This document shows, one piece after another, positions 51,982 through 62,205 of a stretch of 64,000 nt of DNA; the stretch's first letter is position 1; each line of letters begins with the position of its first letter. Below the pieces are notes generated by a model, which saw only the letters and a program-made list of their open reading frames with translations, had not been told where the DNA came from and did no database searches. A program made the translations under genes and the position numbers. Source of the DNA: Escherichia phage vB_EcoM-fFiEco06; sequence record NC_054914.1, one strand, 5' to 3'.

Positions 51982-54900
51982 ATGGCCGAGATTAAAAGAA
52001 AGTTCAGAGCAGAAGATGGTCTGGACGCAGGTGGCGATAAAATAATCAACGTAGCTTTAGCTGATCGTACCGTAGGAACTGACGGTGTTAACGTTGATTA
52101 CTTAATTCAAGAAAACACAGTTCAGCAATATGACCCAACTCGTGGATATTTAAAAGATTTTGTAATCATTTATAATAATCGTTTTTGGGCAGCAACGGAT
52201 AATATTCCAAAACCTGCTGGAAATTTTAATAGAATTCGTTGGAAAGCATTACGTACTGATGCCGTATATACAACCGTATCATCTGGACCATATCAATTAA
52301 AATCCGGAGAAGCAATTTCAGTAGATACATCAGTTGGCAATGACATTGAGTTTACTTTACCACCTTCTCCGCTTGATGGAGAAACCGTAATAATTCAAGA
52401 TATCGGTGGAAAACCTGGCATAAATCAGGTTAAAATAAATTCTTCAAATCAGAGTATTGTCAATTTTAGAGGTGAACAGGTACGTTCAGTTTTAATGACT
52501 CATCCAAAGTCACAGATGGTATTCATTTTTAATAATCGTTTGTGGCAAATGTATATTGCTGATTATAGCAGAGAAGCTGCGATTGTTACTCCATCGACTG
52601 CATATCAAGCACAATCTAATGATTTTATCGTACGTAGATTTACTTCTGCTGCACCAATTAATGTTAAACTTCCGAGATTTGCTAATCATGGCGATATTAT
52701 TAATTTCGTTGATTTAGATAAACTGAATCCACTTTATCATACAATTGTTACTACATACGATGAAACGACTTCAGTACAAGAAGTTGGAACTCATTCCATT
52801 GAAGGCCGTACATCGATTGACGGTTTCTTGATGTTTGACGATAATGAGAAATTGTGGAGATTGTTTGACGGGGATAGTAAAGCACGTTTACGCATTATAA
52901 CAACTAATTCAAATATTCGTCCAAATGAAGAAGTCATGGTATTTGGCGCGAATAATGGAACAACCCAAACAATTGAACTTCAGCTTCCGACTGATATTTC
53001 TGTTGGTGATACTGTTAAAATTTCCATGAATTACATGAGAAAAGGACAAACAGTTAAAATCAAAGCTGCTGGTGAAGATAAAATTGCTTCTTCAGTTCAA
53101 TTGCTGCAATTCCCAAAACGTTCAGAATATCCGCCTGAAGCTGAATGGGTAACAGTTCAAGAATTAGTTTTTAACGGTGAAACTAATTATGTACCAGTTT
53201 TGCAACTTGCTTATATAGAAGATTCTGATGGAAAATACTGGGTTGTACAGCAAAACGTTCCAACAGTTGAAAGAGTCGATTCTTTAAATAATTCTACTAG
53301 AGCAAGATTAGGCGTAATTGCTTTAGCTACACAAGCTCAAGCAAATGCTGATTTAGAAAATTCTCCGCAAAAAGAATTGGCAATTACTCCAGAAACGTTA
53401 GCTAATCGTACTGCTACAGAAACTCGCAGAGGTATTGCAAGAATAGCAACTACTGCTCAAGTGAATCAGAACACCACATTCTCTTTTGCAGATGACCTTA
53501 TCATCACTCCTAAAAAGCTGAATGAAAGAACTGCTACAGAAACTCGCAGAGGTGTCGCTGAAATTGCTACGCAGCAGGAAACTAATACAGGTACTGATGA
53601 TACTACAATCATTACTCCTAAAAAGCTTCAAGCTCGCCAAGGTTCTGAATCATTATCTGGTATTGTAACTTTTGTATCTACCGCAGGAGCTACTCCAGCT
53701 TCTAGTCGTGAATTAAATGGTACGAATGTTTATAATAAAAACACTAATAATTTAGTTGTTTCACCTAAAGCTTTGGATCAGTATAAAGCTACTCCAACGC
53801 AACAAGGCGCAGTAATTTTAGCAGTTGAAAGTGAAGTAATTGCTGGACAAAGCCAAGAAGGATGGGCAAATGCGGTTGTAACGCCAGAAACGTTACATAA
53901 AAAGACATCAACTGATGGAAGAATTGGTTTAATTGAAATTGCTACGCAAAGTGAAGTTAATACAGGAACTGACTATACTCGTGCAGTCACTCCTAAAACT
54001 TTAAATGACCGTAGAGCAACTGAAAGTTTAAGTGGTATAGCTGAAATTGCTACGCAAGTTGAATTCGACGCAGGCGTCGACGATACTCGTATCTCTACAC
54101 CATTAAAAATTAAAACCAGATTTAATAGTACTGATCGTACTTCTGTTGTTGCTCTATCTGGATTAGTTGAATCAGGAACTCTCTGGGACCATTATACCCT
54201 TAATATTCTTGAAGCAAATGAGACACAGCGTGGTACACTTCGTGTAGCTACACAAGTTGAAGCTGCTGCAGGAACATTGGATAATGTTCTAATAACTCCT
54301 AAAAAGCTTTTAGGTACTAAATCTACTGAAGCGCAGGAAGGCGTTATTAAAGTTGCAACTCGGTCTGAAACTGTAGCTGGAACGTCAGCAAATACTGCTG
54401 TATCTCCAAAAAATTTAAAATGGATTGTGCAGAGTGAACCTACTTGGGCAGCGACTACTGCGATAAGAGGTTTTGTTAAAACTTCGTCTGGTTCAATTAC
54501 ATTCGTTGGTAATGATACAGCTGGTTCAACACAGCCATTAGAATCATATGAGAAAAATGGTTATGCAGTATCACCATATGAATTAAATCGCGTATTAGCA
54601 AATTATTTGCCGTTAAAAGCAAAAGCCGTAGATAGTAATTTATTAGATGGTCTAGATTCGCTCCAGTTCATTCGTAGGGACATTGCACAAACAGTTAATG
54701 GTTCACTAACCTTAACCCAACAAACGAATCTGAGTGCCCCTCTTGTATCATCTAGTACTGCTACATTCGGTGGATCAGTTTCAGCAAATAGTACATTAAC
54801 TATTTCTAATACTGGAACGGCAACTCGTCTGATTTTTGAGAAAGGACCTCAAACTGGAACAAACCCGGCTCAAACGATGACAGTCAGAGTGTGGGGAAAT

Positions 54901-55851
54901 CAATTTAGCGGGGAATCAGACACAACACGTTCTACCGTATTTGAAGTTAGTGATGAAACGTCTAGTCATTTTTATTCTCAGCGTAATAAAGCTGGAAATA
55001 TAACATTTAATATCAACGGTACAGTAACACCGATAAATGTTAATGCTTCAGGAACATTGAATGCAAATGGTGTAGCAACATTTGGTAATTCAGTCACTGC
55101 AACTGGTGAAATTATTTCTCGAAGCGCAAATGCTTTCCGTGCTATTAACGGAAATTATGGTTTCATTGTTCGCAATGATGGGTCAGTAACGAATTTTATG
55201 CTTACTGCATCGGGTGATCAAACTGGCGGATTTAATGGATTGCGTCCTTTAGCTATTAATAATGCATCTGGCCAAGTAACGATTGGTGAAAGCTTAATCA
55301 TTGCAAAAGGTGCTACTATAAGTTCGGGTGGTTTGACTGTTAACTCGAGAATTCGTTCTCAGGGTACTAAAACCTCTGATTTATATACCCGTGCGCCAAC
55401 ATCTGATACAGTAGGATTCTGGTCAATCGATATTAATGATTCAGCCACTTATAACCAGTTCCCGGGTTATTTTAAAATGGTTGAAAAAACTAATGAAGTG
55501 ACTGGACTTCCATACTTAGAACGTGGTGAAGAAGTTAAATCTCCTGGTACATTGACTCAGTTTGGTAACACACTTGATTCACTTTACCAAGATTGGATTA
55601 CTTATCCAACGACCCCAGAAGCACGTACCACTCGCTGGACACGTACATGGCAGAAAACCAAAAACTCTTGGTCAAGTTTTGTTCAGGTATTTGACGGAGG
55701 TAACCCTCCTCAACCTTCAGATATAGGAGCGATCCCATCTGATAATGGAATAATAGGTAATCTTACTATTCGCGATTTCTTGCGAATTGGTAATGTTCGC
55801 ATTATTCCTGACCCAGTGAATAAAACTGTTAAATTTGAGTGGATTGAATAA
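51982..55851 (+). CDS. 34: long tail fibre proximal subunit gp34 (1289 aa)
   Basis: Length identical to T4 gp34; internal tandem repeats. Confidence 0.9.
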   Translation: MAEIKRKFRAEDGLDAGGDKIINVALADRTVGTDGVNVDYLIQENTVQQYDPTRGYLKDFVIIYNNRFWAATDNIPKPAGNFNRIRWKALRTDAVYTTVSSGPYQLKSGEAISVDTSVGNDIEFTLPPSPLDGETVIIQDIGGKPGINQVKINSSNQSIVNFRGEQVRSVLMTHPKSQMVFIFNNRLWQMYIADYSREAAIVTPSTAYQAQSNDFIVRRFTSAAPINVKLPRFANHGDIINFVDLDKLNPLYHTIVTTYDETTSVQEVGTHSIEGRTSIDGFLMFDDNEKLWRLFDGDSKARLRIITTNSNIRPNEEVMVFGANNGTTQTIELQLPTDISVGDTVKISMNYMRKGQTVKIKAAGEDKIASSVQLLQFPKRSEYPPEAEWVTVQELVFNGETNYVPVLQLAYIEDSDGKYWVVQQNVPTVERVDSLNNSTRARLGVIALATQAQANADLENSPQKELAITPETLANRTATETRRGIARIATTAQVNQNTTFSFADDLIITPKKLNERTATETRRGVAEIATQQETNTGTDDTTIITPKKLQARQGSESLSGIVTFVSTAGATPASSRELNGTNVYNKNTNNLVVSPKALDQYKATPTQQGAVILAVESEVIAGQSQEGWANAVVTPETLHKKTSTDGRIGLIEIATQSEVNTGTDYTRAVTPKTLNDRRATESLSGIAEIATQVEFDAGVDDTRISTPLKIKTRFNSTDRTSVVALSGLVESGTLWDHYTLNILEANETQRGTLRVATQVEAAAGTLDNVLITPKKLLGTKSTEAQEGVIKVATRSETVAGTSANTAVSPKNLKWIVQSEPTWAATTAIRGFVKTSSGSITFVGNDTAGSTQPLESYEKNGYAVSPYELNRVLANYLPLKAKAVDSNLLDGLDSLQFIRRDIAQTVNGSLTLTQQTNLSAPLVSSSTATFGGSVSANSTLTISNTGTATRLIFEKGPQTGTNPAQTMTVRVWGNQFSGESDTTRSTVFEVSDETSSHFYSQRNKAGNITFNINGTVTPINVNASGTLNANGVATFGNSVTATGEIISRSANAFRAINGNYGFIVRNDGSVTNFMLTASGDQTGGFNGLRPLAINNASGQVTIGESLIIAKGATISSGGLTVNSRIRSQGTKTSDLYTRAPTSDTVGFWSIDINDSATYNQFPGYFKMVEKTNEVTGLPYLERGEEVKSPGTLTQFGNTLDSLYQDWITYPTTPEARTTRWTRTWQKTKNSWSSFVQVFDGGNPPQPSDIGAIPSDNGIIGNLTIRDFLRIGNVRIIPDPVNKTVKFEWIE
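53299..54427 (+). repeat. tandem ~40-residue repeats within gp34 (motif ...TE.RRG.A.IAT..E.N.GTDDT..ITP.KL...), with DNA-level repeats such as ACTGCTACAGAAACTCGCAGAGGT
   Basis: Repeated peptide motif seen at least six times; near-identical 24-nt DNA segment twice. Confidence 0.7.
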
Positions 55852-55859
55852 GAGGTATT

Positions 55860-56975
55860 ATGGAAAAATTTATGGCAGAGTTTGGACAAGGATATGTCCA
55901 AACGCCATTTTTATCGGAAAGCAATTCAGTAAGATATAAAATAAGCATAGCGGGTTCTTGCCCGCTTTCTACTGCGGGGCCATATGTTAAATTTCAGGAT
56001 AATCCCGTTGGAAATCAAACATTTAGTGCAGGTCTTCATTTAAGAGTTTTTGACCCTTCTACAGGAGCATTAGTTGATAGTAAGTCATATGCTTTTTCTA
56101 CTTCAAATAATACTACATCAGCTGCTTTTGTTAGTTTCATGAATTCTTTGTCAAACAATAGACTTGTTGCTATATTAACTAGCGGAAAGGTTAATTTTCC
56201 TCCTGAAGTGGTATCTTGGTTAAGGGGAGCAGGAACTTCAGTTTTTCCATCAGATTCAGTATTGTCAAGATTTGACGTATCATATGCTGCTTTTTATACT
56301 TCTTCTAAAAGAGCTATTGCATTAGAGCATGTTAAACTAAGTAATAGAAAAAGCACAGATGATTATCAAACTATTTTAGATGTTGTATTTGATAGTTTAG
56401 AAGACGTCGGAGCGACAGGATTTCCAAAAAGAACTTATGAAAGTGTCGAGCAATTCATGTCAGCAGTTGGTGGAACTAATAACGAAATTGCGCGATTGCC
56501 AACTTCAGCTGCTATAAGTAAACTTTCTGACTATAATTTAATTCCTGGTGATGTTCTTTATCTTAAAGCACAGTTATATGCTGATGCTGATTTACTTGAT
56601 CTTGGAACTACAAACATATCCATTCGTTTTTATGATGCATCAAATGGATATATTTCCTCGACCCAAGCTGAGTTTACTGGGCAAGCTGGGTCTTGGGAAT
56701 TAAAAGAAGACTATGTAGTTGTTCCAGAAAACGCCGTAGGATTTACGATATATGCGCAAAGAACTGCTCAAGCAGGTCAAGGCGGCATGAGAAATTTAAG
56801 TTTTTCTGAAGTATCAAGAAATGGCGGCATTTCAAAACCTGCCGAATTTGGCGTCAACGGTATTCGCGTTAATTATGTCTGTGAATCGGCTTCACCTCCA
56901 GATATAATGGTACTTCCTACACAAGCCTCTTCTAAAACTGGCAAAGTGTTTGGACAGGAATTTAGAGAAGTTTAA
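55860..56975 (+). CDS. 35: long tail fibre hinge protein gp35
   Basis: 371 aa; position between 34 and 36. Confidence 0.85.
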   Translation: MEKFMAEFGQGYVQTPFLSESNSVRYKISIAGSCPLSTAGPYVKFQDNPVGNQTFSAGLHLRVFDPSTGALVDSKSYAFSTSNNTTSAAFVSFMNSLSNNRLVAILTSGKVNFPPEVVSWLRGAGTSVFPSDSVLSRFDVSYAAFYTSSKRAIALEHVKLSNRKSTDDYQTILDVVFDSLEDVGATGFPKRTYESVEQFMSAVGGTNNEIARLPTSAAISKLSDYNLIPGDVLYLKAQLYADADLLDLGTTNISIRFYDASNGYISSTQAEFTGQAGSWELKEDYVVVPENAVGFTIYAQRTAQAGQGGMRNLSFSEVSRNGGISKPAEFGVNGIRVNYVCESASPPDIMVLPTQASSKTGKVFGQEFREV

Positions 56976-56980
56976 ACTGA

Positions 56981-56998
56981 GGGAGCCTTCGGGTTCCC
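56981..56998 (+). terminator. GGGAGCC-UUCG-GGUUCCC hairpin + U-tract after gene 35
   Basis: 7-bp stem (one G-U pair), UUCG loop, followed by TTTTTC. Confidence 0.7.
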
Positions 56999-57006
56999 TT
57001 TTTCTT

Positions 57007-57014
57007 TATAAATA
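57007..57014 (+). promoter_or_regulatory. late promoter TATAAATA for gene 36
   Basis: Exact match 24 nt upstream of ATG 57038. Confidence 0.7.
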
Positions 57015-57037
57015 ATATTAAAATAAAGGGGCATATA

Positions 57038-57688
57038 ATGGCTGATTTAAAAGTAGGTTCAACTGTGGGTGGATCTGTCATTTGGCATCAAGGAAATTTT
57101 CCATTGAATTCAGCCGGTGACGATGTACTCTACAAATCATTTAAAATATATTCAGAATATAATAAACCGCAGGCAGCTGATAACGATTTCGTTTCTAAAG
57201 CTAATGGTGGTACTTACGCCGGTCCAATTACTATTAATTACGGGGTAAATAGTTATCTTCAATTAAGTAATAATGAAACCCCTATCCGAATTCGTTCTGG
57301 TGGCGGCACTGGTAATACTCTTGTAGTTGGTGGCTCTTCTGGCGGTATTAGTTTTAGACCAGCAGGTAGTGAAATCACTACTGGACAAATTACTATTACG
57401 CCAGAAGGTTTGACAACATTTACCAAAGCTGTAACGGCTCCATCTGTAACTGTTACATCTACTCCTTCCGCAGCATCTGATGTTACTCGCAAAGATTATG
57501 TTGATGGAGCAATAAATACTGTTACAGCAAATGCAAACTCTAGGGTATTACGCTCTGGAGACACTATGACAGGAAATTTAACTGCGCCAAACCTTTTTTC
57601 ACAGAATCCTGCATCTCAACCTTCACACGTTCCACGATTTGACCAAATCGTAATTAAGGATTCTGTTCAAGATTTCGGCTATTATTAA
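57038..57688 (+). CDS. 36: long tail fibre distal connector gp36
   Basis: 216 aa; position. Confidence 0.85.
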
Positions 57689-57696
57689 GAGGACTT

Positions 57697-60681
57697 ATGG
57701 CTACTTTAAAACAAATACAATTTAAAAGAAGCAAAACTGCAGGTCAACGTCCTGCTGCTTCAGTATTAGCCGAAGGTGAATTGGCTATAAACTTAAAAGA
57801 TAAAACAATTTTCACAAAAGATGACTCAGGTAGTGTTATAGAATTAGGTTTAAAATATGGAGGAACAATTGATGGTTCTTTAACTGTTAATGGAAATATA
57901 ATTGGAAATTTAACAGGTAACGCTGCAACTGCAACGAAATTAAAAACAGCACGAAAAATTAATGGTATATCCTTTGATGGGTCAAAAGATATCACGCTAA
58001 CTCCATCTGACATAAATGTCAATAGCACAACGTTTATAAAAAATAATGGCGAATTACCTGTTGATGCTAATTTAGATACGTATGGGCCTGTTGAAGAATG
58101 TCTTGGAGTTTGGTCGAAAGCAACTTCAACCAACGCTCAACCAGCAAATAAATTTCCAGAAGAAAATGCTGTAGGTGTGCTAGAAGTATTTGTGGCCGGT
58201 CAATTTGCTGGTACTCAGAGATATACAACTAGATACGGAAATGTTTATATTCGTTCCTTGACTGCTACATGGAACGGAGTAAATGGTCCGTGGAGTGTGT
58301 GGCGAAATATTCAATCTGGTACTCGTCCACTGTCAACAACAATTGATCTTAATGATCTAGGAGGCGCTGAACACTTTGGTTTGTGGCGAAATAGTTCAAA
58401 TTCCATTGCTACCTTTGACAGAAATTTCCCAGAAGAAGGATCGTCCGCTCAAGGACTTTTAGAAGTATATGAAGGTGGAAACTATTCTCGCACACAGAGA
58501 TATACGACCAGATTTGGTGTTGTTTATACTCGTTGTCTTACTGCTGCGTGGGATGCTTCTGCGCCTAAATGGGGACCTTGGCAACAAGTCGGTAATGTCA
58601 CACCGGCGACTTTCTATGACGGAGATCTGAATGATTTTAAAACTCCTGGGTTATATAATATTTTAGGCACTGATGCCGTTATTAACTGTCCTACCGGTGA
58701 AGGTTTGCCGACTGTTATTGTTGGTTTGCTGGAAGTTAAACAGCGTGCTTCTGGCGGTGCTATTTTCCAAAAATTTACTACTGCCGGAACGGGTGCAACT
58801 ACTCGCGATCGTATTTTTGAGCGTGCATATACTGGTGGTGTGTGGGGTGCATGGAACGAAGTATATACATCTTATTCTCTTCCAATTACTTTGGGTATGG
58901 GTGGTATTAAAGCTCAATTAGCGGAGTTAGATTGGCAAACCTTTGATTTTGTTCCTGGTAGTATGTTTAGCGTTCCTTTGAACAAAATAAAGAACATGCC
59001 AGCAAATATGGATTGGGGGACGATTGACGGAAACCTGGTTATGTTTTCCGTTGGTCCTAGCGAACACACTAGCACAGGGCGTACTGTTCAGGTTTGGCGC
59101 GGTACTGTATCCCAGACAAACTACCGTTATTTTGTCGTTCGTGTGTTCGGTAATTCTGGAAATAGAACTTGCACAGTCCGCCGTGTTGTTCTTGAAGATG
59201 GTCGCCACACATGGACAGCTCAACAAGATTTTAATGGTGCTGTTAACTTCGGTGCTCCTACCAATTTTAACTCTACTGTTAACCTTAATAACACTACCAC
59301 ATTTAAAACAGAAGTTAAATTCCGCTCATCTAATGCATTCCGTATGTATGGCGGAAAATTTGGTACAATTTTCCGTAATGATGGAGAGAGTCTTTATATT
59401 CTTTCCACCGACGAAAATGATCAAGATGGAAACTTTAATACAAATAGACCTTTCCGTTATGAATTAAGAACTGGTGATGTTACTTTGGGTGGTACTAGTG
59501 GTGCTAACGTTTTAAAATTAAAACGCGATTCTCTCACCGCATTTTTTGGTGGTGATATTAATATAAAAGGCTTGATGACTTTTGATGCCGGACGTTTAGG
59601 ATCACGAGATTATTTTAAATTTAACCATTGGGGTGATAGTAATAATGCGCGCGATAACATTATTCAGTTAGAAGACAGCAAAGGCGTTCATTTTTCCACT
59701 GAACGTACTTTAGCGACTGGTGCAATTAAAACTAAATTCTTTGGTGAAGTTGAATCCGAAGGTAGATTGATTATTAAACGTCCGGGTGATTCTATTGTAT
59801 TATCAACAACTGCTGGTAATGCTTTGCATATTCGTGGTGACGTAGACGGGAGTGGTAACTGGTATATTGGTAAGGGTGGTGCTGATAATTCGCTAGCATT
59901 TTATAGCTATGCTACTCAGGCGGCAGTACATATCACAAACAATGGTGAGATTTCGCTAAATCCACAAAATATCGCAATGGTTAACGTTAACCGCGATCGT
60001 GTACACATTAACGGTTCTGGATGGATTGCTAGACAACCGGGTGATTGGGGCAACCAATGGCGAGTAGAAGCTCCATTATTCGTCGATCATGGTTATGTTT
60101 CACAGGATTGTTATTATCCAATTATTAAAGGAAGAAGTGTAATCACCAATCAAGGGTTTGTAACTGCCGTCGATCTTGGTATTCGTCGTGTCCCTAACAA
60201 TTGGGGGCAAGCAATTATTCGTGTTGGATCTGCAGAGGCATCGCCAGCGGCTGGACACCCTAACGCGGTATTTGAATTTCATTACGACGGTACTTTCTAT
60301 TCTCCTGGTAATGGTAACTTTAACGATGTGTATATTCGTTCCGATGGTCGTCTTAAGATTAATAAAAAAGAGCTAGAAAACGGAGCACTTGAAAAAGTAT
60401 GTCGACTGAAAGTTTATATTTACGATAAAGTTAAGTCTATTAAAGACCGTAGTGTTATTAAACGTGAAGTTGGTATTATTGCTCAGGACCTTGAAAAGGA
60501 ATTACCGGAAGCTGTATCTAAAGTTGAAGTTGATGGATCTGATGTTCTGACAATTTCTAACTCTGCTGTGAATGCTCTTTTAATTAAGGCTATTCAGGAA
60601 ATGAGTGAAGAAATTAAAGAATTGAAAACGCCTCTCTTTACTAAAATTGCTCGCAAAATTAGTAAATATTTTAAATTCTAA
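57697..60681 (+). CDS. 37: long tail fibre distal subunit gp37 (994 aa), T2-type with C-terminal intramolecular chaperone-like domain
   Basis: Position/size; N-terminus conserved with T4 gp37; C-terminal SDGRLK motif. Confidence 0.9.
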
Positions 60682-60687
60682 CAACAA

Positions 60688-60702
60688 GGGGGAAATGCCC
60701 CC
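60688..60702 (+). terminator. GGGGG-AAAUG-CCCCC hairpin + UUU after gene 37
   Basis: 5-bp G/C stem read directly. Confidence 0.55.
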
Positions 60703-60716
60703 TTTGGAGTATAATT

Positions 60717-61517
60717 ATGGCAGTAGTTGGTGTTCCTGGTTGGATTGGAAGTTCAGCCGCAAATGAAACAGGACAGCGCTGGATGAGTCAAGCGGCTGGT
60801 CAATTAAGATTGGGTGTTCCTTGCTGGATGAGTCAATTTGCAGGTCGCTCACGAGAAATTATTCACACCCTTGGAGCGGACCATAACTTCAATGGTCAAT
60901 GGTTCCGAGATAGATGTTTTGAGGCAGGTAGTGCACCTATAGTGTTTAATATTACCGGAAATTTGGTATCATATTCTAGAGACGTTCCTTTATTCTTCAT
61001 GTATGGAGATACACCTAATGAATATGTTCAGTTGAATATTGGTGGCGGCGTCCATATGTGGGGTAGAGGTGGACAAGGTGGATGGACCCATTCCGGCGGA
61101 GATGGTAATGGTCAACAAGGTGGTCATTGTATTCAAAATGACATCGGTGGACGATTAAGAATTAATAACGGTGGAGTAATTTGTGGTGGAGGTGGAGGTG
61201 GAGGTGGTATCGCTTATCGTCCTCACTCTGGTGCAAATTGGCAAGATATTGGTGGTGGTGGAGGAAGACCATTTGGCCCAGGAGGAGGCGGAGGTTATTC
61301 CGGCGGCGCAGCTTCTTATGATGGCCCAGGAGGTGGTTATAATTATGGTAATGCTCACTCTGGCCAGGGTGGTGATGCTGGCGCAAATGGACAAAATGCC
61401 TGGTATGATGGCGGTAAAGTTCTAAAAGTTGGAGCTGGTGGCGCTGCCGGATATGCTGTTATAGGATCAGCTCCAACATGGCAAAATGTTGGAGTAATAT
61501 ATGGTCCAAGGGTATAA
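60717..61517 (+). CDS. 38: gp38 receptor-binding adhesin (T2/T6 type, glycine-rich motifs), 266 aa
   Basis: Conserved N-terminal domain followed by Gly-rich motifs and variable segments; between 37 and t. Confidence 0.8.
61035..61451 (+). repeat. glycine-rich motif region of gp38 (GGG.., GGGGGGGG, GGGGG, GGGGG runs separated by variable segments)
   Basis: Poly-Gly runs in translation; GGT/GGA/GGC codon runs in DNA. Confidence 0.8.
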
Positions 61518-61548
61518 TTTTGAATAAATATCCTTAAAAGGAGGGTCT

Positions 61549-62205
61549 ATGGCAGCACCTAGAATATCATTTTCGCCCTCTGATATTCTATTTGGTGTTC
61601 TAGATCGCTTGTTCAAAGATAACGCTACCGGGAAAGTTCTTGCTTCTCGGGTAGCTGTCGTAATTCTTTTGTTTATGATGGCGATTGTTTGGTATAGGGG
61701 AGATAGTTTCTTTGAGTACTATAAGCAATCAAAGTATGAAACATACAGTGAAATTATTGAAAAGGAAAGAAATGCACGCTTTGAATCTGTCGCCCTGGAA
61801 CAACTCCAGATAGTTCACATATCATCTGAGGCAGACTTTAGTGCGGTGTATTCTTTCCGCCCTAAAAACTTAAACTATTTTGTTGATATTATAGCATATG
61901 AAGGAAAATTACCTTCAACAATAAGTGAAAAATCACTTGGAGGATATCCTGTTGATAAAACTATGGATGAATATACAGTTCATTTAAATGGACGTCATTA
62001 TTATTCCGACTCAAAATTTGCTTTTTTACCAACTAAAAAGCCTACTCCCGAAATAAACTACATGTACAGTTGTCCATATTTTAATTTGGATAATATCTAT
62101 GCTGGAACGATAACCATGTACTGGTATAGAAATGATCATATAAGTAATGACCGCCTTGAATCAATATGTGCTCAGGCGGCCAGAATATTAGGAAGGGCTA
62201 AATAA
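61549..62205 (+). CDS. t: holin T (218 aa)
   Basis: Sequence recognisable as T4 T holin (MAAPRISFSPSDILFGVLDRLFKDN...; single TMD, large periplasmic domain). Confidence 0.93.
   Translation: MAAPRISFSPSDILFGVLDRLFKDNATGKVLASRVAVVILLFMMAIVWYRGDSFFEYYKQSKYETYSEIIEKERNARFESVALEQLQIVHISSEADFSAVYSFRPKNLNYFVDIIAYEGKLPSTISEKSLGGYPVDKTMDEYTVHLNGRHYYSDSKFAFLPTKKPTPEINYMYSCPYFNLDNIYAGTITMYWYRNDHISNDRLESICAQAARILGRAK

Follow-up and report, generated by a model that had tools for sequence, protein, structure and literature searches.

The stretch of DNA analysed here, which we call the window, covers 64,000 nucleotides of Escherichia phage vB_EcoM-fFiEco06 (record NC_054914.1), a T-even, T6-like phage of the genus Tequatrovirus, and the element in question is a set of three repeated units in gp37, the distal subunit of its long tail fibre. 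The region 51982-62205 codes for gp34, gp35, gp36, gp37, an adhesin gp38 of the T2/T6 type and the holin t, and the gene order 34-35-36-37-38-t, as in the T4 and T6 maps, is the one expected around a T-even gp37. At the nucleotide level the gene is 99.9% identical to the one annotated as 'long tail fiber, distal subunit' in Escherichia phage vB_EcoM-fHoEco02, and the protein shares 89.7% amino acid identity with T6 gp37. It is built of a conserved N-terminus, the three units (knobs in what follows), a fourth domain, a Gp34_trimer-like segment (Pfam Gp34_trimer, residues 522-587) and a C-terminal Peptidase_S74 intramolecular chaperone (Pfam match at residues 882-940). According to our analysis, the three units very probably represent a tandem array of the knob domain known originally from R-type pyocin fibres, an assignment that rests on the predicted fold and on the names given by NCBI to the homologues. 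The features are collected in Table 1.

Table 1. Position of gp37, its knob units and the cassette common to P2-like fibres in the window (HMM, hidden Markov model; AF2, AlphaFold2)
Feature	gp37 residues	Window positions	Strand	Basis and remarks
gp37, long tail fibre distal subunit, T2/T6/S16 type		57697..60681	+	open reading frame, 994 residues
Knob unit 1	120-207	58054..58317	+	HMM domain bounds; five beta strands in the AF2 model
Knob unit 2	209-300	58321..58596	+	HMM domain bounds; most variable unit among T-even alleles
Knob unit 3	302-392	58600..58872	+	HMM domain bounds; diverged copy
Cassette common to P2-like (Peduovirus) tail fibre H	105-562	58009..59382	+	blastp, 54% identity

The units measure 88, 92 and 91 residues and follow each other head to tail, with one-residue gaps between the HMM bounds. 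The first-pass annotation of the window had placed three tandem repeats at 58069-58866 (gp37 residues 125-390), and this is confirmed, in agreement with the HMM bounds at 58054-58872. Whole-protein self-BLAST of gp37 returned the identity hit only, and for that reason segments were aligned separately and judged against shuffled sequences. Units 1 and 2 share 38% amino acid identity over their full length, with a Smith-Waterman score of 161 against a shuffle mean of 27.9 (standard deviation 5.1, z = 25.9, none of 2000 shuffles as high) and an hhalign E-value of 7.7e-26. Tandem Repeats Finder (TRF) and a repeat finder gave no relevant repeat in the DNA, so that of the self-comparison proposed in the first-pass annotation at both levels, the protein part is borne out by the segment alignments and the DNA part is not; the repeat is visible in the protein only.

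The position of unit 3 required more care. It has 21-25% amino acid identity to units 1 and 2, its pairwise scores stand marginally above shuffles (z = 1.7 with unit 1 and 2.7 with unit 2), and it gave no significant score with HMMs based on close homologues of units 1 and 2 (independent E-value, iE, 7.7). These figures would suit the idea that the true repeats are units 1 and 2 alone, unit 3 being an unrelated beta-rich segment that resembles them by chance. The kinship of unit 3 was settled only by hhalign, an iterative family profile and a single-domain model. Profile-profile comparison with hhalign gives E = 5.7e-6 to unit 1 and 1.7e-3 to unit 2. A profile iterated by hand from units 1 and 2 alone reached the full length of unit 3 (residues 310-389), in register, with iE 2.6e-5 in the third round and 2.4e-10 in the fourth; Z was set to 1e6, and the score of 2.6e-5 precedes any inclusion of unit 3. 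Units 2 and 3 match identical positions of phrog_6614, and unit 3 is predicted to have the same five-strand pattern and matches a pyocin knob when modelled alone. These four independent lines, profile-profile comparison, phrog_6614 positions, iterative profile and predicted structure, place unit 3 in the same family, and a chance likeness is hardly credible against them. The homology of the three units is thus confirmed, unit 3 being a diverged member of the family. A proline, a TT pair and two tryptophans are invariant in an alignment of 17 sequences that covers all three unit types. Units 1 and 2 show the whole consensus pattern of the first-pass annotation, and unit 3 shows part of it, with DLND, G.LEV, Q[RK][YF]TT and W..W..V present and G.W and R.G.VY.R.LTA.W absent.

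The crystal structures of R1 and R2 pyocin fibres contain two tandem knobs of 83-84 residues joined by a helix-plus-turn (Buth et al. 2018, PMC6116203), and in each knob a chain contributes a five- or six-stranded antiparallel sheet that is buried at the trimer axis, with its loops directed outward (PMC6116203). In a monomeric AF2 model of gp37 residues 105-400 (predicted local distance difference test score, pLDDT, 74.7) every unit has five strands at the same offsets, and a short helical turn lies on a conserved L[DN][DT], the core of the DLN motif, near each unit start. A Foldseek search of the PDB with this model gave nine hits at E <= 0.001 from five structures, all of them phage or pyocin fibre or receptor-binding proteins: the phi812 baseplate protein, the P68 fibre, the R1 pyocin fibre 6cl5_A (E = 5.7e-6 over 198 columns), phi11 gp45 and the 80alpha receptor-binding protein (RBP), with AS12 gp42 (6eu4_A, E = 0.01) next in the list. 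Unit 3 alone, modelled as an AF2 monomer from a 60-sequence family alignment (pLDDT 82, predicted TM score, pTM, 0.75), matches 6cl5_A in Foldseek with TMq 0.66 and 2.8 Å root-mean-square deviation over 83 columns, and phi11 gp45 with TMq 0.65. All three units have the size of a knob (about 80-90 residues), and in the predicted structures they have its five- or six-stranded antiparallel sheet, superposable on 6CL5. As to the short helix-plus-turn linker, the units adjoin with the helical turn near their starts, the linker geometry being unreliable in a monomer model. The 'triplicated structural module' of the distal fibre that the first-pass annotation had proposed is therefore supported, as the units are homologous, each is predicted to form a five-stranded beta domain, and these domains match pyocin knobs and those of staphylococcal phage receptor-binding proteins.

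The naming of homologues points the same way. The closest cellular homologues of residues 105-400 are E. coli prophage tail fibres, many of which NCBI names 'pyocin knob domain-containing protein'; presumably a conserved-domain model lies behind this name. The 'pyocin knob' has been described as a mobile pseudo-domain among E. coli phage fibres in the RBPseg paper (PMC12143355), and pyocin knobs were noted in the L-shaped fibre of T5 (PMC13611949). Compared with Knob1 and Knob2 of R1 and R2 pyocins (6CL5 for R1), the gp37 units are similar in length, in head-to-tail order and in the predicted five-strand fold, but number three instead of two and have no detectable sequence-profile similarity to them; moreover, the pyocin knobs adjoin the receptor-binding foot, whereas those of gp37, in the N-terminal third of the protein, belong to a far longer composite fibre and lie close to its N-terminal attachment end. 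The top Foldseek matches, the staphylococcal 'tower' domains (phi11 gp45, 5EFV; 80alpha, 6V8I) and the P68 fibre 6IAB, also carry tandem knob-like domains, but they belong to baseplate proteins of Gram-positive siphoviruses and podoviruses, and the likeness is at the level of fold only (12-24% identity). Buth et al. listed phi11 gp45, phage K gp144, T4 gp34, several tailspikes and AS12 gp42 among knob-like proteins (PMC6116203).

Several observations weigh against the assignment to pyocin knobs. Pfam and NCBIfam models have no match on residues 120-392, and neither have PDB sequence searches with the protein or with a profile of the region, which reach only flanking segments of Mu fibre S, gp34 and S16 gp37 (for the last, structure 6f45, as a weak match); at E <= 10 no PDB chain of a pyocin fibre is among the matches of the region profile. 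The Foldseek E-values for a single domain are modest (6e-3). Trimeric packing and bead geometry are inferred, both models being single-chain. A purely structural role is likewise assumed, and pyocin Knob2 has been proposed to contact lipopolysaccharide (LPS).

The family is large. A unit profile searched against 1.84 billion proteins matches 1,526 clusters (representatives at 50% identity) at E <= 1e-3. In the 150 matches listed plus the gp37 of the window, the number of copies per protein ranges from 1 to 7 and is mostly 2 or 3: one copy occurs in 14 proteins, two in 47, three in 53, four in 21, five in 11, six in 3 and seven in 2. In the same set the median start-to-start spacing of copies is 95 residues and the median aligned domain 78. 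A query of all three units retrieved 226 records from the phage collection, including T6, RB6, RB10, RB33, many T-even phages of Escherichia, Shigella and Yersinia, and P2-like Peduovirus; in 221 of the 226 the match extends over 80% or more of the query. A direct count gave three units in T6 gp37, in a P2-like fibre and in the other T-even gp37 proteins inspected, two in Citrobacter phage Tr1 and one in Pantoea phage MED16. A fibre-like protein of 1300 residues in the representative library (P0032) has two three-knob arrays (residues 216-480 and 722-982), each with another domain after it, and shows that whole knob cassettes can be duplicated inside one fibre.

No further knob copy turned up among the window's open reading frames of at least 60 residues, the C-terminal domain of gp34 giving a weak in-register signal. 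This signal lies at gp34 residues 1187-1233 (window 55540-55680), within the C-terminal globular domain Gp34_2nd of Pfam, and is not significant here (iE 0.006 in a single-sequence search, hhalign P = 0.011). Foldseek gives a weak match of unit 3 to T4 gp34 (TM about 0.43). The gp34 signal agrees with the knob-like gp34 domain listed by Buth et al. (PMC6116203).

The knobs do not travel alone. Residues 105-562 of gp37 align over 458 residues with residues 226-688 of the tail fibre H (919 residues) of the P2-like Peduovirus NC_070906, and E. coli prophage fibres align across the same span. The shared block contains the three knobs and the fourth, non-repeat domain (residues about 393-520), as well as the beginning of the Gp34_trimer-like segment. 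The P2-like and prophage fibres thus resemble gp37 in carrying the three knobs and the fourth domain as one cassette; the P2-like fibre H differs in its N-terminal baseplate-attachment part, in its C-terminal receptor part and in the location of the cassette within the chain. This comparison suggests that the block was transferred horizontally, as a single cassette, from one phage group to another, unrelated one.

Among closer relatives the variation takes another form. The gp37 proteins of T6, RB6, RB33 and ESh30 are products of the same gene, with the same architecture and three knobs at the same residues, but individual knobs come from different allelic lineages. Against T6, amino acid identity is 99% in the N-terminus (synonymous divergence, dS, 0.18), 86% in unit 1 (dS 0.50), 75% in unit 2 (dS 1.25), 98% in unit 3 (dS 0.03) and 98% in the fourth domain (dS 0.09). 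RB33 is 87.5%, 73.9% and 100% identical to the window protein in units 1 to 3, RB6 86%, 79% and 77%, and ESh30 88%, 94% and 95%. In 15-codon bins of nucleotide identity to T6, RB33 and ESh30 the jumps coincide with the unit borders, at residues about 210 and about 300. Such jumps, together with the differing combinations among phages, show that whole knobs are exchanged between alleles of T-even phages with breakpoints at the knob borders. The exchange is one between alleles and not between repeats. Over eight T-even alleles the mean pairwise identity is 92% in unit 1, 81% in unit 2 (minimum 71%) and 87% in unit 3. Units 1 and 2 have a dN/dS ratio of 0.16; they are old alleles under purifying selection, not sites of continuing diversification.

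The first-pass annotation had seen in the repeats a recombination substrate for a change of fibre length or specificity, that is, unequal homologous recombination between the units of gp37 that would shift the copy number, and hence length or specificity, on short time scales. The range from 1 to 7 copies in the wider family and the double array of P0032 would fit such a process, and tandem duplications do occur in deposited gp37 sequences. However, the nucleotide identity between units in register is 52%, 38% and 43%, the longest exact run in register is 11 nucleotides, and the longest shared word, 12 nucleotides between units 1 and 2 and off-register, falls within the chance range, as shuffles reach 14. 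No similarity on the level needed for pairing was found, in line with the negative TRF and repeat-finder searches; the near-complete coverage of the query across the phage records and the constant three units in the T-even gp37 proteins inspected speak for a stable number, and the end points of the duplications in other phages are not at equivalent positions of two knobs. We consider the proposal very improbable, and for recent time scales largely refuted. As for specificity, knob exchange between alleles might bear on host range.

A second explanation concerns function: the knobs, above all knob 2, may be secondary sites for the host surface (LPS or another glycan), so that their swaps would tune host range independently of the adhesin gp38 at the tip. 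It finds support in the variability of knob 2, the most variable among T-even alleles and exchanged as a unit, in the R-type pyocin, whose Knob2 has the most diverse surface and was proposed as an LPS binder (PMC6116203), and in the K1F endosialidase, where a knob-like domain (beta-prism) binds sialic acid (PMC6116203). It is made less likely by the distance of the knobs from the gp38 tip and by the low dN/dS, and we regard it as unlikely. The narrower suggestion that knob 2 of T6-type gp37 would serve as a second, tip-independent contact with the host surface, with knob exchange as a means of host-range tuning beside the swapping of gp38, resembles the binding at two sites proposed for R-type pyocin fibres and is, in our opinion, slightly more doubtful still. 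The main role of the knobs is most likely structural, or architectural.

The duplications found in deposited sequences are of some interest on their own. In gp37 of Escherichia phage UPWr_E4 a perfect in-frame tandem duplication of 153 nucleotides directly follows knob 3 and brings the protein to 1045 residues; it adds 51 residues (YSLPITLG...DWGTI) equivalent to window 58872-59025, gp37 residues about 392-442. Its two copies are 100% identical, and therefore either it arose very recently or it is an artefact of the assembly. In vB_EcoM-G3G7 a perfect tandem duplication of 127 nucleotides crosses the border of knobs 1 and 2 (equivalent to window about 58306-58434); in UPWr_E2 the duplication is about 347 nucleotides long (equivalent to window about 59445-59791). 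Both break the frame and leave gp37 split into two annotated coding sequences, and they are probably assembly artefacts or defective variants. As candidate knob-knob recombinants all three were rejected, because their end points do not lie at equivalent knob positions.

Comparison with T4 gp37 structures, also proposed in the first-pass annotation, is uninformative for the repeat: no knob unit is detected there by sequence, and only residues 1-66 and 544-598 are common with the gp37 of the window. The two resemble each other in the gene order and in the N-terminal 66 residues, the conserved gp36-binding N-terminus, at 79% identity. T4 gp37 binds gp36 through its N-terminal region and forms the receptor tip with its C-terminal region (PMC3004832), and the distal half-fibre of T4 looks in electron microscopy like a string of globular domains (PMC3004832). 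The tips differ, T4 having a needle with gp38 as chaperone, whereas in the phage of the window gp37 carries an S74 chaperone domain and gp38 is an adhesin. Here the S74 chaperone end of gp37 (60340-60681) is followed by a glycine-rich gp38 adhesin (60717-61517), the tip of the T2/T6/S16 type and not the T4 needle; the downstream open reading frame matches GP38 (PF05268, E = 8e-69).

Two further observations concern neighbouring parts of the fibre. Just ahead of the knobs, at gp37 residues 63-106 (window 57883-58014), there is a motif of the type INGxxFDGSxDIxL, which is 66% identical to residues 630-673 of the P2-like fibre, where it stands downstream of the knob cassette, and this type of motif is repeated several times in a fibre protein of 1494 residues (P0037). 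It seems to be a further mobile motif of fibre proteins. The knee-cap protein gp35 has at residues 58-112 (window 56031-56195) a match to the Pfam ILEI domain (Interleukin-like EMT inducer) with E = 5.4e-8, above the gathering score.

Returning to the knobs as structural elements, we propose that in each fibre trimer the knob sheets of three chains would pack around the axis with their loops outward, as in the pyocin crystal structures, so that each knob would form one bead. The knobs may contribute stiff, self-registering trimer of a defined length and may help the three chains to fold in register, as folding nuclei; an architectural or folding role of knobs in general has been suggested by Buth et al. 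(PMC6116203). The array would have arisen by ancient duplications and would now be inherited as a fixed cassette of three knobs, which together with the fourth domain may have been transferred horizontally between the gp37 genes of T-even phages and the fibre genes of P2-like ones. Its present variation would come from homologous exchange of whole knobs between the alleles of co-infecting relatives, not from unequal crossing-over between the repeats.

The knob is an already known module, and the repeat, although real, is ordinary annotation. It matters little beyond this: residues 120-392 of T6-type gp37, a blank in Pfam, can be labelled as three knob domains. The domain boundaries 119/120, 208/209, 300/301 and 392/393 are of use for the engineering of chimeric fibres, and the natural breakpoints of T-even phages at knob borders suggest that knobs may be swappable as units without breaking the trimer. 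The cassette shared with P2-like fibres would be a further example of the exchange of modules between unrelated phage groups.

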